Assembly (NCBI GenBank): GCA_902826065.1 | Contig: CADEDM010000006.1 | Location: 836 to 64,835 of the forward strand | DNA: 64,000 nt | Origin: an uncultured Acidobacteriota bacterium | Lineage (GTDB): Bacteria > Acidobacteriota > Vicinamibacteria > Vicinamibacterales > UBA2999 | Direction of reading: 5' to 3' | In this document: positions 28,033 through 51,304 of the stretch, in pieces | Numbering within the stretch: position 1 is the first letter of the stretch | How the letters are laid out: every line of letters begins with the position of its first letter | The notes under the pieces: model-generated | What the model saw: only the letters and a program-made list of their open reading frames with translations | Told to the model about the DNA's origin: nothing | Databases searched by the model: none | Translations under genes and position numbers: made by a program

Positions 28033-30748
<2,716 letters not shown>

Positions 30749-30878: not shown

Positions 30879-31712
30879 GTGATTGCACGCGCGTTCACGG
30901 CGGCCCTGGCGGCCGCCGCTCTCTCTCTTGCCAGTGCGGCGCCGGCCGCGGCGCAGGTCGTCGGCACCTTCAGCTGGCAGACGCAGCCGTACTGCAACGT
31001 CATCACCGTCACCGTCATCCAGCAGGGCGCGGCGTTTCAACTGACGGGCCTCGACAACCAGTGCGGCGGCGCGGCGTCGCCCGTGACCGGCACGGCGATC
31101 TTCTCCGGCGGCACCGTGCAGATGGGGATCGCGGTCGCGCTGGCGAACGGACGGGCCGTGAACCTGTCCACGTCCATCAGCCTCGGCACGCTTTCGGGCA
31201 CGTGGACCGACGACGCCAGCCTGGCCGGCACGTTCGTGTTCAACGGCAGCGGCGCCGGCGGAGGCGTGCGTCCCGCGCCGTCGACCGTGCGCACCGACAC
31301 CTACTTCCCCCAGGCTGTCACCTGGGAACAGCCATCGCTCTTCGTCTCGTCGTTCATCAACGAGTGCGTCCACAACACCACCGCCAACTCCGTGTTCGCG
31401 TTGATTCCGATCATGATGCCGGCCGGCAGCCGGCTGCTCTCGGTCGACACCATGGTGCTCGACGGCGCCGGCCCGACCACCTACAGCGTCGCCGTCCGCA
31501 AGATCACCTACTCGCCCTCGGGCGTGAGCGGGGCGAACGTGTTCTCGAGTGGCACGCTCGGTGCCGGGTCCGGTTTCGTGCATGCCGTCTACACGCCGGC
31601 CACGCCAGAGATTTCCACCCCACAGACGAACTATTACGTCCGGGTCGGAGGTTTCGGCAACAGCGCCAACGGGTTCTGTTCCGTGACCGTGACCTACGAT
31701 CCCCATCCGTAG
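30879..31712 (+). CDS. secreted protein, paralogue 1 of a 3-member family with a conserved PYCNV/QCG N-terminal module
   Basis: GGAGGAG precedes GTG 30879. Signal peptide ends AAPAAAQ. N-module: FSWQTQPYCNVITVTV...LDNQCGG...LSGTWTD...GTFVFNG. The C-terminal domain is unique to this copy. Confidence 0.7.
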   Translation: MIARAFTAALAAAALSLASAAPAAAQVVGTFSWQTQPYCNVITVTVIQQGAAFQLTGLDNQCGGAASPVTGTAIFSGGTVQMGIAVALANGRAVNLSTSISLGTLSGTWTDDASLAGTFVFNGSGAGGGVRPAPSTVRTDTYFPQAVTWEQPSLFVSSFINECVHNTTANSVFALIPIMMPAGSRLLSVDTMVLDGAGPTTYSVAVRKITYSPSGVSGANVFSSGTLGAGSGFVHAVYTPATPEISTPQTNYYVRVGGFGNSANGFCSVTVTYDPHP

Positions 31713-31809: not shown

Positions 31810-32271
31810 ATGCGACTGCGAATCGTTTCCATCTGCGCGGCGGCCATCGTGGCCGTGCTCGCCTCTGCCGCGCCCAGCCAGGCTCAGGCCGAGCTGCGCG
31901 CCGGGGTGTGGGACAACTCCACCAACCCCAACAACGTGATGACCTACGAGGCCATCTCCAACGGCAAGGGCAGCAAGCTCGTTGTCAGCAACCCGAGCAA
32001 GCCGGGCGACGAGTGGAGCTACGAGACGATGTTCGACGGCGTGTTCCGTCCGGTCAAGGGCCAGGAAGGCTCCGAGACCGCGGTCGAGCTGATCAACGGC
32101 AATGCCAAGAGCATCCGCATCCTCAACAAGCGCAACGGCCAGGTCTACCAGGTCGTCATCAACACGCTGAACGAGGACAACACCGTCATCAGCAACGAGT
32201 ACATCCGCCTCGACAAGGACGGCAAGATCACGGGCGTCACGCACGTGATTTACAACAAGCGCAAGAAGTAG
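31810..32271 (+). CDS. small secreted Asn/Lys-rich protein of unknown function
   Basis: Signal peptide MRLRIVSICAAAIVAVLASAAPSQAQA. GAGGT RBS. Locally lower G+C, but third codon positions are still mostly G/C. Confidence 0.7.
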   Translation: MRLRIVSICAAAIVAVLASAAPSQAQAELRAGVWDNSTNPNNVMTYEAISNGKGSKLVVSNPSKPGDEWSYETMFDGVFRPVKGQEGSETAVELINGNAKSIRILNKRNGQVYQVVINTLNEDNTVISNEYIRLDKDGKITGVTHVIYNKRKK

Positions 32272-32295: not shown

Positions 32296-32332
32296 CAACG
32301 GCCGCCGGTGATCCGGCGGCCGTTGGCTTTTT
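32296..32332 (+). terminator. canonical rho-independent terminator
   Basis: 13-bp perfect stem CAACGGCCGCCGG-tgat-CCGGCGGCCGTTG followed by GCTTTTT. Confidence 0.8.
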
Positions 32333-38201: not shown

Positions 38202-39206
38202 TCAGGCGCGGAGCAGCGCCGTCATGATCAGGGCCGAGGCCGCCGTGGCCGCAGCCGCGGCCGCTACGGCCAGGCGATCAGAGACCGGCGGTGACCAACC
38301 GCGGGCGCGCAGCACGTAGCGCAGGCCCAGGGCGGCGTGGACACCCACGGCCACGACGCTCAATGCGTAGTAGGGCGCGAGCCGCGCGCTCCACGGGTCG
38401 GTCAGCATGCTGTCGGCCGTGAGCCACTGCCAGTTGGTGTCGATGTCGCGCAGCCATCGCGCCCGCAGCGCCGCCGTGAGATGCGACAGGAAGAAGGCGG
38501 CCAGGTAGGCGCCCGACGCGACCTGCGCGGTGTGCCACCACGACCGCGTCCGTTCGACGTGGTCGCGCAGCAACCGCAGTCCGCTCAGCGTCTGGAACGC
38601 GACCGCGGCGAGCAGCACGAGCTCGACGCCCGGCGCACGATAGACGGTTCGCAGCGCGGACATCACGGCGATGTGTCGCTCGCCGCCGGCGAGGGCCGCG
38701 AGATGGTTGGTGAGGTGCGCCAGCGCGAACACCGTGATGATGGCGGCGCTGCACCCATGCGCGAACGCCAGTCTCGCCGGCCGGGGCCGCGCCGCGCGCG
38801 CCGTCTGGCCGCCGGTCGTCGCGACGACCGTCAGCGTGAGCCACAGGAGGATCCAGACAGCGAGGCCGTGCAGCGGCACCGTCGTCTGGAAGTCCAGCAG
38901 ACCGCCGAGCCACGAGTAGAGCGGCGGCGCAGCGACGACGGCGAGCGCGACGGCGCGGGCCCGTGGGGACGCCGGTCCCAACGCGTGCGCGGCGGTCACA
39001 CCGATCGCCGGCACCGCCAGTGCCATCGCGAGGAACAGGGGTGAGATCGCCGGGCCGGCCCAGATGATCGCGGGGTAGACCAGCGCCGCCAGCGGTGGCG
39101 CCGCCAGCGTCAGCCGGGACACGGCGGCCGGATCTCGCACGTGGAGAGCGTAGGCTGGCGCCGGAGGGACGGGAAGGGCCAATGGCGCGGCCATGCATTG
39201 CGCCAT
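38202..39206 (-). CDS. polytopic integral membrane protein of unknown function (about 8 TM, conserved-looking His in the C-terminal helices)
   Basis: Strongly hydrophobic with regular TM spacing. The competing + strand ORF is Arg-rich nonsense. Confidence 0.6.
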   Translation of the reverse strand: MAQCMAAPLALPVPPAPAYALHVRDPAAVSRLTLAAPPLAALVYPAIIWAGPAISPLFLAMALAVPAIGVTAAHALGPASPRARAVALAVVAAPPLYSWLGGLLDFQTTVPLHGLAVWILLWLTLTVVATTGGQTARAARPRPARLAFAHGCSAAIITVFALAHLTNHLAALAGGERHIAVMSALRTVYRAPGVELVLLAAVAFQTLSGLRLLRDHVERTRSWWHTAQVASGAYLAAFFLSHLTAALRARWLRDIDTNWQWLTADSMLTDPWSARLAPYYALSVVAVGVHAALGLRYVLRARGWSPPVSDRLAVAAAAAATAASALIMTALLRA

Positions 39207-39266: not shown

Positions 39267-40100
39267 ATGCCGTTCTCACGTTCGCTCGCGGCCTTGCTGC
39301 TCACGTTCACGGTCGCTCCCATTGCCGGGGCGCAGGTCATCGGCCCGCTGCGCTGGCAACTCGCGCCGTACTGCAACGTGGTGACGATCACGGTGACGCC
39401 CTCTGGCGGGCAGTACGGATTGCAGGGTGTCGACGACCAGTGCGGCGCCGGTGCGGCGCCGTCCGGCGTCATCGGCCTGGCCTACCCCATGCCCTCCGGC
39501 GACGTCGGCATGAGCCTGACCACGGTGCTGGCCCCGTCAGCCACGCCGGTGCACACCGACGTGACGCTGAGCCTCGCCACCCTGCACGGCACGTGGCGCG
39601 ACAGCGTCGGCAACAGCGGCACGTTCGTGTTCGCGCCCGGCGCGGTCGCCGGCGGCAAACGGCCGGTATCGCCGGCGGGTCTTCGCCCCGGTAGCGTCAC
39701 GGCGTCGCACCTCGCCACCAATGCCGTCGGCACTCTCAATCTCGCCAACGGCGCCGTGTCGGCCAGCAAGATCGCCAACGACGGCATCAACGACAGCACG
39801 CTCATCGCGCCCGGGACGATCGAGCTGAGCGACCTGAACCAGCAGCTCAGCGTGGGCACCAACAGCACGTGGTCGATCCCGGCCGGAGGCTGCGTGGCGC
39901 GCCAGACGACCTCGTTCACCGAGACCGTGCAGGAGGGCGACCTGCTGCTGGCGCGCATCCAGACCGGCCCGCCCGGCGTGTTCACGCTGGCGGCGGTGGC
40001 CGGCGCCGATGGCCGGTTCGGCTACGTCGTCTGCAACCCGACCAACGCCGCGATCGTCAGCACGGGCATCGCGCTGTCGCTCAAGCGCGTGCCGCGCTGA
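39267..40100 (+). CDS. secreted protein, paralogue 2 of the PYCNV/QCG family, with fibre-like repeats
   Basis: AGGAG RBS. Signal peptide ends PIAGAQ. N-module: LRWQLAPYCNVVTITV...VDDQCGA...LHGTWRD...GTFVFAP. Then about 10-residue repeats GSVTASHLATN/AVGTLNLANG/AVSASKIANDG. Confidence 0.75.
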   Translation: MPFSRSLAALLLTFTVAPIAGAQVIGPLRWQLAPYCNVVTITVTPSGGQYGLQGVDDQCGAGAAPSGVIGLAYPMPSGDVGMSLTTVLAPSATPVHTDVTLSLATLHGTWRDSVGNSGTFVFAPGAVAGGKRPVSPAGLRPGSVTASHLATNAVGTLNLANGAVSASKIANDGINDSTLIAPGTIELSDLNQQLSVGTNSTWSIPAGGCVARQTTSFTETVQEGDLLLARIQTGPPGVFTLAAVAGADGRFGYVVCNPTNAAIVSTGIALSLKRVPR

Positions 40101-43161: not shown

Positions 43162-44208
43162 ATGAGACAGCTGCCATTCGCCGTCGTGGTTGCCGTTGTC
43201 GCGGGTTCGTGGCTCGTAGGGCCGATCGGGGCACGGCAGTCGGCGCCCGCCGCCCAGCCAGGCGCCGCGGCGCCCGCCGGCTGGACGGTGCCGCGCACCG
43301 CCGACGGCAAGCCCGACCTGCAGGGCGTCTGGGGCAACAACAGCGTGACGCCCATGACGCGCCCGACGCAGTGGAAGGACAAGGTGTCGCTCACGGACGC
43401 CGAGGTCAACGAGCTGAAGCAGTACGCGCAGCAGTTCGTCGATCAGGGGGGCGATGCCATCTTCGGCAACTTCGTCCAGCAGATGCTCGACGCGAAGGAC
43501 AAGGGCGCCTTCAAGCAGGTGTCGTACGACCCGACCACCGGCAACTACAACCAGTTCTGGATGGCCGATCGTGAGTGGGACAATCGCTCCTCGCTCATCG
43601 TCGACCCGCCCGAGGGCCAGTTCCCGCCGATGACGCCGGCCGGCATCGCCCGCCGCGACGCGCGCCTGGCCGCCGCGAAGGCCAGCACGCGCGGTCCGTC
43701 AGACGGCCCCGAGGACCGCCCGCTTTCGGAGCGCTGCATCTCCTACGGCGCGCCGCGCATCGGCGCCAACTACAACAGCTACGTCCAGATCCTGCAGTCG
43801 CCGAAGACCGTGGTGCTGATGCAGGAGATGATTCACGACGCGCGCGTGGTCGACATGACCGGCACGGCGCACCTGCCGAAGACCATCCGCCAGCTCCACG
43901 GCGACCCCCGCGGCCGCTGGGAGGGCGACACGCTGGTCGTCGAGACGACCAACTACGTCAACGGCTTCCAGGGCTCGACCAACGACGTCACGCTCACCGA
44001 GCGCTATACGCGGGTGAGCCCGGACTTCATCGAGTGGAAGGTCACGGTCGACGACCCCGCCACGTGGACCACGCCGTACACGTTCATGATCCGGCTGAAG
44101 AAGACCGACGGCCTGATCTACGAGTACGCCTGCCACGAAGGCAACTACGCCATGACCGGCATCCTCGCGGGTGCGCGCCGCGAAGAGAAGGCCGGCGGCA
44201 AGCGCTAG
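43162..44208 (+). CDS. secreted protein, larger paralogue of the 41811..42641 lipoprotein family
   Basis: Signal peptide MRQLPFAVVVAVVAGSWLVGPIGA. Family motifs: PDLQGVWG, CISYGAPR, GRWEGDTLVVETT, VTLTERYT, VDDPATW, YEYACHEGN. Confidence 0.75.
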   Translation: MRQLPFAVVVAVVAGSWLVGPIGARQSAPAAQPGAAAPAGWTVPRTADGKPDLQGVWGNNSVTPMTRPTQWKDKVSLTDAEVNELKQYAQQFVDQGGDAIFGNFVQQMLDAKDKGAFKQVSYDPTTGNYNQFWMADREWDNRSSLIVDPPEGQFPPMTPAGIARRDARLAAAKASTRGPSDGPEDRPLSERCISYGAPRIGANYNSYVQILQSPKTVVLMQEMIHDARVVDMTGTAHLPKTIRQLHGDPRGRWEGDTLVVETTNYVNGFQGSTNDVTLTERYTRVSPDFIEWKVTVDDPATWTTPYTFMIRLKKTDGLIYEYACHEGNYAMTGILAGARREEKAGGKR

Positions 44209-45686
44209 GCGGCGACGATCTGCGGCACCAGCGTGCCGTAGACGTCGGTCAGCCGCATGTCGCGGCCGTTGAACCGGTAGGTCAGCTTCGTGTGGTCGAG
44301 TCCGAGCAGGTGCAGCACCGTGGCGTGCAGGTCGTGGTACGAGATCGGCTGCTCGAGCGCCTTGTACCCGAAGTCGTCGCTCGCGCCGATCACCTGCCCG
44401 CCCTTGATGCCGGCGCCGGCCATCAGCACCGTCTGCGTCCCCGGATTGTGATCGCGTCCGACGCCGCGCTGTGAGATCGGCATGCGCCCGAACTCGGAGT
44501 GCATGATCACGAGCGTCGAATCGAGCAGTCCGCGCGCCTTCAGGTCGCGCAGCAGCGCCGCAGCCGGCCGGTCGGTCTCGGCTGCGTGCTGCGTGTGGTT
44601 CGCCTTCACGTCGCCGTGCGCGTCCCAGGTGTCGACGTTCTGGTTGCCGACGCCGCCCGAGTAGATCTGCACGAAGCGCACCCCACGTTCCACCAGTCGC
44701 CGCGCCATCAGGCACTGCCGCCCGAACGGCTCGGTGACCTTCTCGTCGAGCCCGTAGAGCGCGCGCGTCGCGTCCGACTCCCCGGCGAGGTCGATGGCGC
44801 TCGGCGCGCAGCCCTGCATGCGGTAGGCGAGCTCGTATGACGAGATGCGCGCCGCCAGCTCCGAGTTGCCCGGGTATTTCTGCATGTCGAGTTCGTTGAG
44901 CTTCGCCAGCGTGTCGAGGCGCAGCCGCTGGTCCTCGGCCGAGATGCCGGCCGGCGGCTTGAGGTCGACGATGGGATCACCGGTCGAGCGGAACAGCGTG
45001 CCCTGGAAGGCCGCGGGCATGTAGCCGGCGCTCCAGTCGTTGGGCCCGCCCAGCGGTCCGCCGCGCGCGTCGGTCATCACGACGTAGGCCGGCAGGCTCG
45101 ACGACACCGAGCCCAGCCCGTAGGTGACCCAGGCGCCGACGCTCGGGAAGCCCAGGTTGATCTGGCCCGTCTGCATCTCGTAGGTGCCCTGCACGTGGTC
45201 GTTCGAACGGCCGTAGACCGAGCGCAGGAACGCGATCTCGTCGACGTGCTGGCTGAGGAACGGGAAGATCTCCGAGATCTCGATGCCGCTCTGGCCGTGC
45301 TGCTTGAACGCGAACGGGCTGGGCATCAGCGGGCCGGGCGAGCCCTGGCGCACGATGACGTCGCCCTTCACCTTGTCGTCGATCGGCTGGCCGGCGTACT
45401 TCATCAGCGCCGGCTTCGGATCGAAGGTGTCCATCTGGCTCCAGCCGCCGCCCATGAACAGGGAGATCACGCTGGTGGCGCGCGGCGCGAAGTGCGGCGC
45501 CCTGGGCGCGTACGGATTCGATCCGACGGCGGCGGCGCTGCACGCGTCCTGCTGCGCCAGGGCGGTCGTCGACAGCAGCCCCTCGCGATCGAGCAGCCAG
45601 GCGAGCGCGAGGCCGCTGATGCCGCCGCCCGACGAGAACAGGAACTCGCGCCGATCCCAGAAGTTCTTGCTGCAGCGGTGCGACAC
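44205..45686 (-). CDS. DUF1501-family TAT-exported sulfatase-fold protein
   Basis: WDRREFLFSSGGGISGLALAWLL twin-arginine signal. Sulfatase-like core (MGGGWSQMDTFDPKP, HSEFGR). Lies directly downstream of a PSD1 gene. Confidence 0.85.
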   Translation of the reverse strand: MSHRCSKNFWDRREFLFSSGGGISGLALAWLLDREGLLSTTALAQQDACSAAAVGSNPYAPRAPHFAPRATSVISLFMGGGWSQMDTFDPKPALMKYAGQPIDDKVKGDVIVRQGSPGPLMPSPFAFKQHGQSGIEISEIFPFLSQHVDEIAFLRSVYGRSNDHVQGTYEMQTGQINLGFPSVGAWVTYGLGSVSSSLPAYVVMTDARGGPLGGPNDWSAGYMPAAFQGTLFRSTGDPIVDLKPPAGISAEDQRLRLDTLAKLNELDMQKYPGNSELAARISSYELAYRMQGCAPSAIDLAGESDATRALYGLDEKVTEPFGRQCLMARRLVERGVRFVQIYSGGVGNQNVDTWDAHGDVKANHTQHAAETDRPAAALLRDLKARGLLDSTLVIMHSEFGRMPISQRGVGRDHNPGTQTVLMAGAGIKGGQVIGASDDFGYKALEQPISYHDLHATVLHLLGLDHTKLTYRFNGRDMRLTDVYGTLVPQIVAA

Positions 45687-45689
45687 GGC

Positions 45690-48389
45690 TCACCTCAGGT
45701 AGAGGAACTCGTCGAGATTCAGCAGCACGTGCGTGAACGCCGCGAGCGACTGCCGGCGCACGAGGAAGCGGGCCACGTCGCGCTCCGCCGCCACCGGCCC
45801 TCGTCCGAGGGCGATGCGATACGCGAGATCGATCTGGGCGTCGGGTTCGCCGGAAACCGCGGCGACGCGCGCCGCCAGGCGGTCGGCCTGCGCCAGGACG
45901 AACGGGTTGTTGAGCAGCGTCAGCGCCTGCGTCGGCACCGTCGAGACGTTGCGCGCGCCGGCGACGACGTTCATGTCGGGATGGTCGAAGGTGTCGAACA
46001 TCGGATAGGGCAGGGAACGGCGGCGGTAGACGTAGACGCCACGCCGCCACGCCGCCGGCCCCTCGGGCGTGTTCTCCCACTTGCCGCGGAACTGCCCCTG
46101 GAGGATGTCCTTCGGCATGAACGGGAAGATCGGCTCGCCGCCCACCGCCCGGTTCAGGTTGCCGCCGGCGACCAGCATGCTGTCGCGCACGATCTCGGCC
46201 TCGAGCCGCTGCGGACGGAAGCGCCACAGGTAGCGGTTCTCGGGATCGCGGGTCGCGTTGTCGTCGCTCGCGAAGCTCGAGGCCATCTGGTAGGCCTCCG
46301 ACAACATCATCTCCTTCTGGATCGGCTTCAGCCGCCAGCCCTGGTTCACGAGTTCGATCGCCAGCCAGTCGAGCAACTGCGGATGCGTGGGCGTGTCGCC
46401 CATCTTCCCGAAGTTCTCGAGTGTGCTGACGATGCCGCGGCCGAAGTGCTTCTGCCACAGGCGATTCACGATCACCCGCGCCGTGAGCGGATGGTCCGGC
46501 GAGGTGATCCACTTCGCCAGCGCCAGGCGACGGCCGGAGGTGCGGCCGTCGGGTCGCGGAATCGCGGTGGGCGGCGTGCCGGCCGTCGCCACGCCGACGA
46601 AGCCCGGCGCCATCTGCGGCCCGTGGCTCTCGACGTCGCCGCGGATCAGGAAGTACGACGGCGGCGTCTCGTAGCGCCCCGGGCCCTTGTGCAGGTAGCT
46701 GCCCGGGAATGGCGGCGGGATACGGCACTTCGGGCAACTGACGACCTCGTCGCCTTCGCCGAGCGGCGAGAAGCGATGGTCGCCGTCGGTGACGATCTCG
46801 GCCATCGGCAGCGGCGCTGGTCGTGCCTTCTCGACCGCGGCGAGGTCCGCGAGCAGGCCCTTTTTCGCGGCGAGGTCGCCGGGTGACAACGCCGCGTCGA
46901 TCTGCGCGGCCGGCGCGTTCACCGCCTCGAACACCTGGATGGCGAGCAACCGCTCGCCAGGCGTGCGGTCGGCCTCGGGTTTTGCCGCGGCTTGATAGAT
47001 CGCGTCGGGGAAGCGTGCCTTGATCAAGGCCAGCTCGATGCGGTCGCGCTGCGGCTTCTCGATGGCCGCGATCTTCGTGCGCAATGCATCACGCCGTGCG
47101 TTCAGCGCTTCCTGCGTCGCGAGGTAGGCGTCGGCCTCCGCCGGCGGCGCCAGCGGCACCTCGGTCTCGACGTAGCCGAAGATCGACGCCTGCAGGGCGT
47201 AGTAGTCCTTCTGCCGGATCGGATCGAACTTGTGGTCATGGCAGCGTGCACAGCCGACCGTGAGCCCCATCGTGCCCTTGCCGATGGCGCTCAGCACGTC
47301 GTCCAGGTAGTCGAAGCGGCGCTCCGGGTTGTCCTTCTCGCGGAACAGGACGCGCGGGCCGGCGCGCAGGAACCCGGTGGCGATCAGGCTGTCGAACGTG
47401 CGGTCGTCGACTTCGTCACCGGCGATCTGCTCGGTCAGGAAGACGTCGTACGGCTTGTCGTCGTTGAAGGCGCGGATGACGTAGTCGCGATAGCGCCACG
47501 CATTCGGGCGGTGCACGTCGTACTCGAACCCGCCCGAGTCCGCGTAGCGGGCCACGTCGAGCCAATGGCGGCCGTAGCGCTCGCCGTAGTGCGGTGAGGC
47601 GAGCAACTGATCGACGAGCCGCTCCCAGGCATCGGGCCGATCGTCGGCGACGAAGCGATCGACTTCGTCGGGCGAAGGCGGCAGACCGAGAAGATCGAGA
47701 TACGCCCGCCGCACCAGCGTGGCCCGGTCGGCACGCGGCGCCGCCCGCAGGCCTCGCGCCGATCGCTCGGCGTCGAGGAAGCGATCGATGACGCTGGTCA
47801 GGCCCGCCCGTGCGGGCGCCGGCGGCACCGTCTGCACCGGCCGCGTGAACGCCCAGCGTCCACGCTCCTCGGCGGTGAGCGGCCGCTCTTCGATTTCGGC
47901 GCTGGCGGCCGCGGCGGCGGCGGCGGTGGTGGCGGCTGCGGCCAGTCCCGCGGGCCAGGTGGCGCCGCCGTCGATCCAGCGCTTCATCGCCGCGACCTCG
48001 GCCGGCGTCAGCGGCGCGCCGCGCATCGGCATCGCCGGGACGTCGAGGCCGGCGGCCAGGCGGTACATCCGGCTCTGCTCGGCATTGCCGGGCACCAGCG
48101 CGGGCCCCTTCGCGCCGCCGTCGATCGCGGCCTCGCGCGTGCGCAGGTCGAGTTTCGAGAGCCTCAGCTTCTCGCCGTGGCAGCCCAGGCACTTGCCCAC
48201 GAGCAGGGCGTGGATCTCCGGATCGGCGGGGACCGGGGCCTGGGCCGAGAGCGCCGGAAGAACGGCCGAGAGACGAATCAGGGCGAGGCCGCCGAGGGCC
48301 AGACCGAGCGGAGCCGAGGCGACCAACCGTCGTGGCACTCCACACCTCCGTCCGAGGTTCGCGGGCCGGGCAGATCGAAGCGGGCTCAC
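45690..48389 (-). CDS. PSD1/PSCyt-type protein (planctomycete cytochrome c domain + DUF1549 + DUF1553)
   Basis: CLGCHGEKLRLSKLDLRT N-terminal CxxCH and a second GCARCHDHKFDP. Size and order are typical of DUF1549/DUF1553 proteins. The start is uncertain (GTG at 48389). Confidence 0.8.
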   Translation of the reverse strand: MSPLRSARPANLGRRCGVPRRLVASAPLGLALGGLALIRLSAVLPALSAQAPVPADPEIHALLVGKCLGCHGEKLRLSKLDLRTREAAIDGGAKGPALVPGNAEQSRMYRLAAGLDVPAMPMRGAPLTPAEVAAMKRWIDGGATWPAGLAAAATTAAAAAAASAEIEERPLTAEERGRWAFTRPVQTVPPAPARAGLTSVIDRFLDAERSARGLRAAPRADRATLVRRAYLDLLGLPPSPDEVDRFVADDRPDAWERLVDQLLASPHYGERYGRHWLDVARYADSGGFEYDVHRPNAWRYRDYVIRAFNDDKPYDVFLTEQIAGDEVDDRTFDSLIATGFLRAGPRVLFREKDNPERRFDYLDDVLSAIGKGTMGLTVGCARCHDHKFDPIRQKDYYALQASIFGYVETEVPLAPPAEADAYLATQEALNARRDALRTKIAAIEKPQRDRIELALIKARFPDAIYQAAAKPEADRTPGERLLAIQVFEAVNAPAAQIDAALSPGDLAAKKGLLADLAAVEKARPAPLPMAEIVTDGDHRFSPLGEGDEVVSCPKCRIPPPFPGSYLHKGPGRYETPPSYFLIRGDVESHGPQMAPGFVGVATAGTPPTAIPRPDGRTSGRRLALAKWITSPDHPLTARVIVNRLWQKHFGRGIVSTLENFGKMGDTPTHPQLLDWLAIELVNQGWRLKPIQKEMMLSEAYQMASSFASDDNATRDPENRYLWRFRPQRLEAEIVRDSMLVAGGNLNRAVGGEPIFPFMPKDILQGQFRGKWENTPEGPAAWRRGVYVYRRRSLPYPMFDTFDHPDMNVVAGARNVSTVPTQALTLLNNPFVLAQADRLAARVAAVSGEPDAQIDLAYRIALGRGPVAAERDVARFLVRRQSLAAFTHVLLNLDEFLYLR

Positions 48390-48483
48390 TCTACCGCAGC
48401 CAGGGCGCCACGACCAGACCGTCGACGCCGTGGCCGTGGCTTCGCCCGAGGCGTCACGGCCTGAGCCGTGCTGTCCTGGCGCG

Positions 48484-49485
48484 TCAGTGCAGTCGGGCCA
48501 CGTAGAAGCCCGTGACCGCCCCGTCGCTCGCAGTGAACGATGCGCCGGTGTTGTTCAGAATGCGAACACCGACGACGTCGCCGGCGGCCAGCGCGAGGAC
48601 GGCCGTCGCCGACTGCGACTCGAACACCGCCGCCGCGTCCTGGCACTCGCCGACTTCCGCCACGCCGTTGAGAAAGATGACCACGCAGCGATTCCCGGGC
48701 GCACCGCCGTTGGGCAGGAGTCCGACCGCCGCCGACACCATGTACGTGCCCGCCGACGGTACGGAGTACTCGCCCGTCGCGGGGTCGTAGCTGCCGCCGC
48801 CGACGTTGGTCAGGGACCCCCAGCCGGTGATCGATGTCGTACCAGGGCCGAGGGTCTGATCGGCCAGCGACGCCGATCTGAAGCGGACGTCGGCGCGGAT
48901 CGGCACGCAGGTCACGCCGCCGCTGGTGAGCACGGCGCTGATGGCGGAGCCGGCGCCGCACGCGCCCGAGACACGAAGCTGCACCTGGCTGGCGAGGACT
49001 TCGGTGGCGCCCACGGATCCCCCTGCGAGTTCGACCTGCGTGATCGTGCCTGGGGCCACGCTGCTCGGCGGCAGCGGACGCACCGGCAGGCCGGCAACGG
49101 TCTGGAAGAAGGCGAACGTGCCGCCGTGCCCGATGCTGTCGAGCCACGTGCCATGACCAGTGGCCGGACTCACGACCGCCGACACGTGCACGGCCTTCGC
49201 CCACGGCGTCACGATGCTGAAGTTCATCGTGAAGCTGCCGTCGGCGTTCGGCGAGGCGATGCCGACCACGCTCGCCTTTTTGACTGCACCGCATTGATCT
49301 TCGGTGCCGTCGAGTCTGAACCCGGCCGGCGTGTTGGTCAGGGTCAGCGTGACGACGTTGCAGTAGGGCAGCATCTGCCACGGCACGGGGCCCAGGATGG
49401 TCTGCGCAGCGGCGTCGCGGCCCGCGCAGATTACCAACAGCACCAAGCCGAGCCGTGCTGACGTCACCGTGCAGAATCTGGCCAT
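48484..49485 (-). CDS. secreted protein, paralogue 3 of the PYCNV/QCG family, with C-terminal C1q/TNF-like globular domain
   Basis: GGAGGAG RBS. Signal peptide ends RDAAAQ. N-module: VPWQMLPYCNVVTLTL...TEDQCGA...GHGTWLD...GTFAFF. The C-terminus aligns by eye with C1q heads (YDPATGEYSVPSAGTYMVSA, LALAAGDVVGVRI, VTGFYVARL). Confidence 0.75.
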   Translation of the reverse strand: MARFCTVTSARLGLVLLVICAGRDAAAQTILGPVPWQMLPYCNVVTLTLTNTPAGFRLDGTEDQCGAVKKASVVGIASPNADGSFTMNFSIVTPWAKAVHVSAVVSPATGHGTWLDSIGHGGTFAFFQTVAGLPVRPLPPSSVAPGTITQVELAGGSVGATEVLASQVQLRVSGACGAGSAISAVLTSGGVTCVPIRADVRFRSASLADQTLGPGTTSITGWGSLTNVGGGSYDPATGEYSVPSAGTYMVSAAVGLLPNGGAPGNRCVVIFLNGVAEVGECQDAAAVFESQSATAVLALAAGDVVGVRILNNTGASFTASDGAVTGFYVARLH

Positions 49486-49612
49486 GACTCCTCCAGTCGG
49501 GATCCGAAGCGTCCAGAGTGTACGCGTGCCGGCTGACTGACCCCGCCAGCTCGCCGCTACCGGCGAGGACAGGTGGCGAGGCGAGGCAGGTCCGGCGCCC
49601 GATGCGGAGACG

Positions 49613-49618
49613 TAGACT
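49613..49618 (+). promoter_or_regulatory. -10-like hexamer TAGACT placed for a leaderless transcript
   Basis: The GTAGACT hexamer ends 6 nt before the A of ATG 49625. There is no Shine-Dalgarno sequence in between. Confidence 0.4.
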
Positions 49619-49624
49619 AGCCGC

Positions 49625-51304
49625 ATGCGCCTGCTCGTTCTCGCGCTTGCGGCTGCGCTCTCGGGCCAGGGCGGTCGCCCGGCCGGTCCGCTGATCGTCG
49701 TGATCGACGGCGACAGCGCTGTCGCGGCGCCGGAAGACACGGCGCGGCGACGCGTGGCGCTGCTCGAACAACTGGACCCCGGCGCCGTCGCGAAGTACTA
49801 CGAGCTCACCGCCAGTGGCATCCACCCGGTGGCACCCACCGACGCGGCGTCGTTCCGCCGCACCGTGTTCACCGTGACGCCGCCGAGCTACTCGGGCGTG
49901 AAGGTCACGTTCTCCGAGAGCACCGAGATCCTGCGTGGCAACGAGGCGGTGCGCGAGGCCGTCATCGCGCGCGAGTGCTCGAGCGGCTGCGGCGGGCGCG
50001 TGCGCGCGGCGGTCGAGGCCGAGGTCAAGCGCACCGAGGGAGAGAGTGCCCGCAAGCTCCAGCATCTCGCCGCGCAGGCGACGTCGTGGCGCGGAGCCCG
50101 GGTGGTCCTGGTGACCTCCGGATGGCCGACGCGTGACGAGGCCCGCGTGCGTCTCGACCGCGCGCTCGCGCCGCTGCGTGAGCACGCCGTGTCGCTGACC
50201 GTCGTGCACGTGCCGTCACGCGAGCCCTATCGGGGCCTCGTGCGTGATGCCAGCGAGAGCCTGGCGGCCCGGCTGCCGGCGCGCTACGCGACGCTGGCCG
50301 GCGACGCCGACGTGTCCGCGGCGGCGACCCTCGTCGGCGTCGCCTCTCCGGCGCAGACGACCGCCGCGATCACGACGTCCGCGGGAGCATCAGCGTCCTT
50401 CGCCCTTGGAGCGACGCCTGGTCCGGAGAGTCCCGCGCAGGCCGTCGGGCCATCGACATCGCCGGCGGCCGACCCACCGGTCGCTGCGCCGGCCAACGAC
50501 GACGCGACGCTGCGCCGGGCCGCCGCCTACGTCGCCCGCTTCGAGCGGACGTTCACCGAAGTGGTCTGGCACGAGCGGTACGAGCAGGAAGTGCGCGTGT
50601 GGCAACGGTTCTCGAGTTCCGGCGAGACGCGATGGAACCTCGACGGCCGTCGCACGCTGGAGTCAGAGCTCTACTTCGCGTGGCTGCCGAAGGACGGGAC
50701 GTGGATCGCGGTGCGCGATGTGATGGCGGTCGACGGCAAGGCGCGGCCGGCCGGCGACCGCCGCCTGGCCGCCCTGGCGGCGCGCGGCTCCGTGTCCGTG
50801 CTGGAGCTGCGGGAGTTGGCGCGCGAGAACGGACGCTTCAACATCGGCACCATCGTCCGCACGTTCAACGAGCCCACGCTGGCGCTGCTGTTCCTCACCG
50901 AACGCCACCGTGCCCGCGTGGCGTGGTCGCGCAAGGGCCAGCGGCGCGCCGACGGGCGCGTCGTGGCGACGTATGCGTTCACCGAGCAGGGACGTCCGAC
51001 GCTGATTCGCAGCGGCGACCGCGACATGCCCGTGCGCGGGACGTTCGACCTCGACAGCGCCACCGGCGAAGTGCTGGCCAGCACCATCGAGTTATCCGAA
51101 CCGCTGGCCATCGGCGAAGCCCTGCCGACCCTCACCGGACGGATGGCCGTGGACTACCGGCCGCACGTCGCGTTCGACGTGCTGGTGCCGGGCGAGATGC
51201 GAGAGTCCTACAGTGCCCACCGCTCGGAAGAGGTGACCGCGACGGCCATCTATTCGGACTTCCGGCGCTTCTGGACGACGGCCCGCCTGATCCTGACCCC
51301 GTAG
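49625..51304 (+). CDS. secreted two-domain protein of unknown function (degenerate VWA-like N-domain, A/P/S/T linker, unknown C-domain)
   Basis: Signal peptide MRLLVLALAAALSG. Strand pattern LIVVIDGDSAV ... RVVLVTSGWPTRDE ... SLTVVHV. A low-complexity linker near residues 235-290. The C-domain is rich in W/Y/E/R. Confidence 0.6.
   Translation: MRLLVLALAAALSGQGGRPAGPLIVVIDGDSAVAAPEDTARRRVALLEQLDPGAVAKYYELTASGIHPVAPTDAASFRRTVFTVTPPSYSGVKVTFSESTEILRGNEAVREAVIARECSSGCGGRVRAAVEAEVKRTEGESARKLQHLAAQATSWRGARVVLVTSGWPTRDEARVRLDRALAPLREHAVSLTVVHVPSREPYRGLVRDASESLAARLPARYATLAGDADVSAAATLVGVASPAQTTAAITTSAGASASFALGATPGPESPAQAVGPSTSPAADPPVAAPANDDATLRRAAAYVARFERTFTEVVWHERYEQEVRVWQRFSSSGETRWNLDGRRTLESELYFAWLPKDGTWIAVRDVMAVDGKARPAGDRRLAALAARGSVSVLELRELARENGRFNIGTIVRTFNEPTLALLFLTERHRARVAWSRKGQRRADGRVVATYAFTEQGRPTLIRSGDRDMPVRGTFDLDSATGEVLASTIELSEPLAIGEALPTLTGRMAVDYRPHVAFDVLVPGEMRESYSAHRSEEVTATAIYSDFRRFWTTARLILTP

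Follow-up and report, generated by a model that had tools for sequence, protein, structure and literature searches.

A 64-kb stretch of DNA from an uncultured Acidobacteriota bacterium (contig CADEDM010000006.1; hereafter, the window) encodes three dispersed paralogous proteins, which we designate p1 (30879..31712, + strand), p2 (39267..40100, + strand), and p3 (48484..49485, - strand). Each has a signal peptide followed by a shared N-terminal module (N-module), which is predicted to fold as an eight-stranded beta-barrel, and the sequences diverge beyond the conserved R-P that closes the module. With moderate confidence, we interpret p1, p2, and p3 as Sec-exported, probably trimeric, mosaic fiber or adhesin proteins of a lineage-specific family of Vicinamibacterales-type Acidobacteriota, in which a constant foot carries exchangeable binding tips. 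The new elements are the N-terminal barrel domain, which curated libraries lack, and the large expansion that it has undergone in Vicinamibacterales; the architectural principle was already known.

Three Paralogues Share an N-terminal Module

The three open reading frames (ORFs) were first proposed in a reading of the DNA letters (the original prediction), and they were confirmed at the coordinates proposed there. Third-position GC in the called frames is 0.87-0.93 (the window is 71.4% GC), and a Shine-Dalgarno-like GGAGG/AGGAG lies 4-12 nt 5' of each proposed start. BLASTP with composition-based statistics over approximately 110 aa gave 42% identity between p1 and p2 (E 6e-27), 37% between p1 and p3 (E 2e-18), and 40% between p2 and p3 (E 2e-30). 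The proposal of three paralogues with a common module placed after an A-x-A/Gln signal peptide is therefore borne out. The modules had also been described as aligning without gaps. A MAFFT alignment of the three has 34 invariant columns, including every motif that had been listed, and four indels of 1-2 residues; the homology and the motifs stand, but the gapless alignment does not. The 11-mer TACTGCAACGT, noted earlier as conserved at the DNA level, occurs exactly three times in the window, once per gene (0.01 occurrences expected by chance), and tblastn found no fourth copy of the N-module in the window. Both cysteines of the module, which had been called invariant from three sequences, are retained in 48 and in 128 further family members. 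The three genes are old paralogues from three subtypes of the module rather than recent duplicates.

Reading of the sequences identified Sec-type signal peptides with n-, h-, and c-regions in p1 (MIARAFTAALAAAALSLASAAPAAA), p2 (MPFSRSLAALLLTFTVAPIAGA), and p3 (MARFCTVTSARLGLVLLVICAGRDAAA), each ending in A-x-A and followed by Gln, and no lipobox was found in any of the three. The number of cysteines is even in every mature domain of these proteins, which fits oxidative folding outside the cytoplasm. Signal peptides are found across the whole family and not just in the window proteins.

The N-module had no significant match in Pfam-A, NCBIfam, PHROGs, or a profile search of PDB sequences, and literature searches found no description of such a family in Acidobacteria. 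The claim of an undescribed family thus holds for the N-module but not for the class of protein, which is not conceptually new because mosaic adhesive trimer (MAT) fibers share its design (PMC10769870). DUF6287 was considered as a possible family and rejected. Fourteen of 48 members matched it below threshold (12.6 bits, cut-off 26.3), and the matches span only the 13-residue GTW hairpin (module residues ~82-94) of a 34-position profile, which does not amount to membership. The likely explanation is that the GTWxDxxGN hairpin is a recurrent beta-hairpin motif and does not signal homology.

Predicted Fold of the N-module

AlphaFold2 (AF2) modeling of the N-module from a 48-sequence alignment gave eight strands and one short helical turn, with a predicted local distance difference test score (pLDDT) of 92.6 and a predicted template modeling score (pTM) of 0.83. 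Together with the signal peptides and the even cysteine counts, this model agrees with the earlier suggestion of a beta-rich, disulfide-capable exported domain. Foldseek against PDB, a comparison that had been suggested with the original prediction, returned only eight-stranded up-and-down barrels, namely designed barrels, bradavidin and other avidins, lipocalins, fatty acid-binding proteins (FABPs), and nitrobindin. Template modeling (TM) scores were about 0.55 (best 0.56-0.58, for bradavidin and designed barrels) at 12-20% identity. None of these matches is significant, as the lowest E-value was 0.022 (TM 0.56) and none fell below 0.02. Nothing resembling the barrel was found in a library of viral structures (BFVD; best E 0.12).

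We treat the predicted fold class as a calycin-like meander barrel, with superfamily membership unproven. The likeness to avidin/bradavidin, lipocalins, and FABPs lies in a predicted eight-stranded antiparallel barrel of similar size, whereas the N-module differs from calycin barrels in its GTW hairpin in strands 7-8 and in being fused to fibers instead of standing alone. On the assumption of a simple meander, the invariant motifs would fall in loop 1 (PYCN), loop 3 (DDQCG), and loop 7 (the turn of GTWxDxxGxxGTF), and all three loops would be at the far end of the barrel from both chain termini. Adjacent loops at this end would then hold the two invariant cysteines, which makes a disulfide between them plausible.

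Family Size and Distribution

A profile search, also suggested with the original prediction, was run against 1.84 billion representative sequences and recovered 1,025 clusters (50% identity) at E<=1e-3, of which 543 were at E<=1e-30. Family proteins range from 160 to 1531 aa, and the start of the module is always at approximately residue 22-30, immediately behind the signal peptide. When one genome per GTDB species was scanned, 259 matching stretches were recovered, from which 78 loci provide the locus-level counts reported here. The taxon labels of these loci are almost all Vicinamibacterales, Acidobacteriota, or Acidobacteria metagenome-assembled genomes (MAGs); a few contigs with other labels look mis-binned. 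The fetched loci hold 135 distinct modules from 35 MAGs, and a single MAG has at least 15 modules in the fetched loci alone. Two or more modules occur in 33 of the fetched loci, and same-strand tandem arrays reach four genes. The longest protein (P0096, 1531 aa) comprises two complete family genes in one predicted product, with signal peptide, barrel, fiber, and Peptidase_S74 domain each present twice. A frameshift, or a gene-calling artefact that joined the two genes of a tandem pair, is the probable cause.

Partner Modules and Exchange of Heads

Peptidase_S74 (S74), YadA head, collagen, C1q, and BclA_C modules all come from assemblies that are obligately trimeric. In a Pfam scan of 128 family representatives, the S74 intramolecular chaperone (PF13884) was found in 27, YadA_head repeats in 11, collagen in four, and C1q and BclA_C in one each. 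The YadA C-terminal membrane anchor family was found neither in these representatives nor in p1, p2, or p3. Long members carry the catalytic SDxRxK of S74 and a VGIGTxxP capping-loop motif; the latter is present in the long relatives P0135, P0108, and P0206 and absent from the three window proteins. An HxH linker (ARSDHDHD) occurs in 21 of 59 p1-type relatives. A VQxRVxGxC neck motif occurs in 34 of 145 family representatives, and it is also found in fibers of other phyla that lack the N-module. This repertoire fits the earlier description of a constant base with a variable receptor-binding head.

Tails differ widely among members: the last 120 residues of 249 tails fell into 53 clusters, 30 of them singletons. 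The p1-, p2-, and p3-like subtypes of the N-module each pair with neck, HxH, and S74 modules. Because the same tail modules recur on every subtype, tails have been shuffled between barrel subtypes, and the swapped C-terminal heads of the original prediction hold for the family as well as for the window.

Architecture of p1, p2, and p3

All three window proteins are of the non-S74 type, and they carry three different heads. p1 (277 aa) has a GTG start with GGAGGAG 3 nt upstream. Its 25-aa signal peptide (30879..30953, +) ends in A-A-A before Gln and is followed by the N-module (30954..31283, +; hidden Markov model [HMM] envelope 26-135), which contains the invariant Cys14 and Cys37. The protein has no stalk, and an all-beta head of approximately 142 aa with two cysteines (31284..31709, +) comes directly after the module. 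This head is of a rare type confined to P0066 and P0067, which are close orthologues with 86% identity to p1 across the full length, and to the distant relative L004. A family match was sought for the p1 head and none was found. AF2 on full-length p1 modeled the head as nine strands at low confidence (pLDDT only 55-70), and Foldseek with this model gave generic matches to jelly rolls and carbohydrate-binding modules (CBMs), including CBMs, viral jelly rolls, Pgp3, and Ena, at TM <0.35.

p2 (277 aa) is monocistronic, with neighbors on the opposite strand on both sides. Its N-module covers residues 23-136 (HMM envelope; 39333..39674, +). The stalk (39675..39836, +) consists of tail-fiber-type repeats (..GSVTASHLATNAVGTLNLANGAVSASKIANDGI..), and residues 137-186 (~50 aa) match phrog_892, "tail fiber protein," at E 4.4e-7. 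A small C-terminal head with two cysteines follows (39837..40097, +), and its only relatives are P0063, P0137, and P0222. Fiber-like repeats with a small domain had been read in this copy beforehand, and the PHROG match agrees with that reading.

p3 (333 aa) has an ATG start with GGAGGAG 4 nt upstream, and its N-module covers residues 28-140 (HMM envelope; 49066..49404, -). The neck (48874..49065, -) has one fiber repeat and the Cys-bracketed motif VQLRVSGACGAGSAISAVLTSGGVTC (VQLRVSGAC...GGVTC). The C1q/TNF-like head (48487..48873, -) was recognized in the original prediction, and Pfam C1q (PF00386) confirms it with 27.7 bits over residues 226-318, above the gathering cut-off of 23.7. The head also matches C1q-like proteins in PDB (E 0.005-0.06) and phrog_15750 (E 2e-10). 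Five other family proteins have a C1q head of this type. The BclA_C score of p3 is 15.8 bits, under the 38-bit cut-off, and collagen repeats are absent from p1, p2, and p3. Judged from these domain matches, trimerization appears well grounded for p3 through its C1q head, plausible for p2, and open for p1.

Genomic Context

Approximately 30 other proteins of the window were scanned, and all of those with a Pfam match have ordinary chromosomal functions; a few ORFs had no match. The matched proteins include a Fur-family regulator, thymidylate synthase (ThyA), purine-nucleoside phosphorylase (PNP), permeases, an amine oxidase, a PSCyt/DUF1549/DUF1553-DUF1501 pair, a MacB-type permease, glycosyltransferases, and topoisomerase IB. 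Genes for phage, tailocin, or extracellular contractile injection system (eCIS) components (sheath, tube, baseplate, capsid, terminase) were not found among the scanned proteins.

The only strong intrinsic terminator (32296..32325) lies after a small secreted ORF (31810..32271, +) that begins 98 nt 3' of p1, so p1 may be bicistronic with it. Its product, 153 aa long and Lys-rich, has a signal peptide and no Pfam match. The ORF was considered as a general partner of the family and rejected, because it was not found beside other family members. p3 is upstream of a PSCyt1/DUF1549/DUF1553 gene (45690..48389) and a DUF1501 gene (44205..45686), both on the same strand (-). No terminator-like site was found within 48200..49800 around the end of p3, and co-transcription of p3 with the DUF1553 and DUF1501 genes is therefore possible.

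Other neighbors were recorded. The Fur-family regulator (PF01475; 28030..28524, +) is directly 5' of a KatG-like (catalase-peroxidase) ORF (28361..30748, +), the latter called from reading the sequence and not from the scan; together they make up an oxidative-stress pair of the furA-katG type just 5' of p1. Divergent from p2 is a 334-aa multi-pass membrane protein (38202..39206, -), and a 559-aa protein (49625..51304, +) is divergent from p3; neither has a Pfam match.

Among the 78 related loci, the only recurrent neighbors are genes for an extracytoplasmic function (ECF) sigma factor (PF07638), with or without a Ser/Thr kinase with tetratricopeptide repeats (TPR), in about 22 loci. These genes are often directly 5' of tandem arrays (e.g., L015:518-3859, L019:1711-2289, and L042:3242-3847), which suggests signal-dependent regulation of the related loci. 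The window has neither an ECF sigma factor nor a Ser/Thr kinase. No convincing shared promoter motif emerged from k-mer enrichment in the regions 5' of family genes, and sigma-70 promoter scans were empty.

Discussion

In the model we favor, signal peptidase I would cleave after A-x-A, and the mature protein would begin with the conserved Gln. The mature N-terminus would form an eight-stranded up-and-down barrel of about 105 residues bearing the invariant PYCN, DDQCG, and GTWxDxxGxxGTF motifs. Given a simple meander, these motifs would occupy loops at one end, where the two cysteines are probably disulfide-bonded. The barrel would serve as the constant foot, with its conserved face docking to a lineage-specific envelope component or to surface-sorting machinery. 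A Pro/Gly-rich hinge after R-P would join it to an exchangeable stalk and a distal head, and stalk and head would bind ligands, for example glycans, particles, or neighboring cells.

The closest described design is the MAT superfamily of Bdellovibrio bacteriovorus, which has 21 paralogues in strain HD100 (Caulton et al., 2024; PMC10769870). MAT proteins consist of a signal peptide, a conserved beta-rich N-domain of ~130 aa, a trimeric fiber, and an S74 chaperone or a variable tip, some tips being TNF/C1q-like; their N-domain is without a homologue in PDB, and attachment to a surface element is presumed for it (PMC10769870). Members of the Vicinamibacterales family follow the same order of signal peptide, beta-rich N-domain, fiber, and swappable tip. 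Both families also have S74 and non-S74 subfamilies, TNF/C1q-like tips, and many paralogues per genome (HD100 has 21, and some MAGs here have at least 15). Long Vicinamibacterales members further share the VGIGTxxP capping-loop motif and the SDxxxK S74 site with MAT fibers. In each system the N-domain lacks a PDB homologue, and its anchoring role is presumed. There are also differences. The hosts are Bdellovibrionota and Acidobacteriota, respectively, and no predatory lifestyle is known for the latter. The MAT N-domain is ~130 aa, and the barrel that takes the analogous place here is ~110 aa. The MAT constructs named by Caulton et al. are 843-1151 aa (PMC10769870), compared to 277-333 aa for p1-p3, and p1 has no stalk. 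PDB entries for MAT proteins cover C-terminal fragments only. In a homology search with the long S74-bearing member P0135, the best 120 matches were all members of the same family or close fibers, and no Bdellovibrio protein was among them.

Several fibers from outside the family share its distal parts. Six proteins (P0242, P0269, P0287, P0326, P0330, and P0331, one of them labeled Myxococcales) have the VQxRVxGxC neck, HxH motifs, or S74, and they carry a different conserved N-domain of the "LQGYL..." type after the signal peptide. This domain was compared with the barrel as a possible homologue and is unrelated (hhalign probability 0.2%). It may be the foot of other lineages. The sharing of neck and S74 modules by lineages with another N-domain supports a lineage-matched foot with fiber parts that circulate more widely.

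Other fiber systems have parallel layouts. In eCIS tail fibers, an N-terminal anchor (eBAP1-5) attaches to the baseplate, and the heads vary, with C1q and S74 among them (PMC12923769). The design logic of eCIS and phage fibers, in which shuffled C-terminal binding domains sit on a fixed N-terminal attachment domain, is also that of the present family; however, eCIS fibers lack signal peptides and are encoded in eCIS loci, whereas the Vicinamibacterales proteins have signal peptides and no eCIS or phage locus was found in the window. In BclA of the Bacillus exosporium, a stalk links an N-terminal targeting region to a trimeric jelly-roll head. BclA is a layout parallel for p3 only, and p3 lacks the collagen stalk that four of 128 relatives have. 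BclA has a short targeting peptide where p3 has a folded barrel, and the host of p3 is diderm and not known to sporulate. Trimeric autotransporter adhesins of the YadA family share YadA_head repeats with 11 of the 128 representatives and are likewise trimeric fiber adhesins, as we infer for the present proteins. They are held by a C-terminal membrane anchor, whereas the conserved module here is N-terminal and of a soluble type, and many members end in S74.

Of the competing explanations, the one nearest to our model assigns the barrel to export, as a sorting tag read by a dedicated outer-membrane translocation system that delivers varied fiber cargo to the surface or the medium. The logic would be analogous to that of the C-terminal domain of type IX secretion system (T9SS) cargo or the barrel domain of Slam/type XI secretion system (T11SS) cargo. 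It would account for a module strictly fixed beside the signal peptide in every member, for a lineage-restricted module attached to cargo modules common to other phyla, and for a large multi-copy family with diverse cargo. On the other hand, no conserved transporter gene was found beside family genes in the related loci, no TbpB- or fHbp-type barrel was among the top 50 Foldseek matches, and known sorting domains of this kind are C-terminal. We consider this explanation improbable, with the proviso that it overlaps with the anchoring model and is inseparable from it by sequence alone. Slightly less probable still is that the barrel is itself the functional binder, with a pocket like that of avidins or lipocalins that would accept a sugar, a lipid, or another small molecule, while the C-terminal parts only oligomerize or localize the protein. 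The nearest structures (bradavidin, avidins, FABPs, lipocalins, and nitrobindin) are ligand-binding eight-stranded barrels, and in a simple meander the invariant W8, Q9, P12, Y13, N15, W84, and D86 would cluster in loops at one end. Those structural matches are all non-significant, however (E>=0.02, TM about 0.55), and Pfam gave no avidin or lipocalin signal. A constant binding unit is also hard to reconcile with dozens of unrelated heads per genome, and the variable distal tip sets specificity in every characterized fiber system (PMC10769870; PMC12923769).

That p1-p3 are tail fibers of a prophage, tailocin, or eCIS, with the N-module as a baseplate-attachment domain, is very unlikely. PHROG tail-fiber and minor-tail matches for p2 and p3 point toward it, as do the S74 chaperone domains, the NCBI name "tail fiber domain-containing protein" given to S74-bearing members, and the eCIS fibers that combine conserved N-terminal eBAP1-5 anchors with swapped heads including C1q and S74 (PMC12923769). 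Signal peptides and genomic context contradict such an origin: cleavable Sec signal peptides are present in all members, whereas phage and eCIS fibers assemble in the cytoplasm, and the ~30 scanned window proteins are cellular, with no sheath, tube, baseplate, capsid, or terminase. Moreover, no viral structure in BFVD resembles the barrel, and copy number climbs to at least 15 per genome, with tandem arrays that adjoin ECF sigma factor and kinase genes and not phage genes. An artefact of high-GC, Ala/Gly/Thr-rich composition, or of ORFs that are not real genes, has to be weighed in a 71% GC genome with many spurious long ORFs. The similarity persists under composition correction (E 1e-18 to 1e-30), the 34 invariant columns include W, C, Y, N, and P, over 1,000 clusters of homologues exist elsewhere, the fold is predicted with confidence, and third-position GC is that of coding frames (0.87-0.93). 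BLASTP, the family-wide profile search, and the AF2 fold exclude this explanation. The original prediction had itself named a known Pfam family or a low-complexity artefact as outcomes that would overturn it; both were looked for, and the module has no Pfam hit and its composition-corrected E-values hold. The interpretation offered with that prediction is supported in its main points.

Several points weigh against the mosaic trimeric fiber model. Trimerization is deduced from the partner modules, and p1 has no recognizable stalk or trimer module and a head model of low confidence. The placement of the invariant motifs was derived from the predicted secondary-structure (DSSP) string and an assumed simple meander. 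The calycin/avidin-like fold class is more often linked to small-ligand binding than to anchoring, and no conserved gene for an anchoring partner was found among the 78 related loci. In addition, a Sec-exported fiber would still need a route across the outer membrane.

A more specific and more speculative form of the mosaic fiber model is offered here tentatively, and we think it unlikely to hold in full. The WQxQPYCN barrel would be unrelated to the MAT N-domain and would define a surface-display system new to science and specific to Vicinamibacterales. A disulfide-stapled, calycin-like barrel would be docked or sorted on a lineage-specific envelope receptor and would present dozens of shuffled trimeric tips per genome, which would allow programmable binding of soil polymers or other cells, and at least some arrays would be switched on by ECF sigma factors and Ser/Thr kinases.

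Vicinamibacterales are among the most abundant soil Acidobacteria and are poorly cultured, and little is known of their contacts with surfaces, polymers, and neighboring cells. With more than 1,000 clusters and up to at least 15 copies per genome, the family described here probably accounts for a major share of their cell-surface biology. The barrel foot is compact and confidently predicted and has no Pfam or NCBIfam entry, which makes it a candidate new domain family and a structural target. Should the barrel turn out to be a portable module for anchoring or sorting, it would lend itself to surface display and would extend the concept of the mosaic adhesive trimer beyond predatory bacteria.

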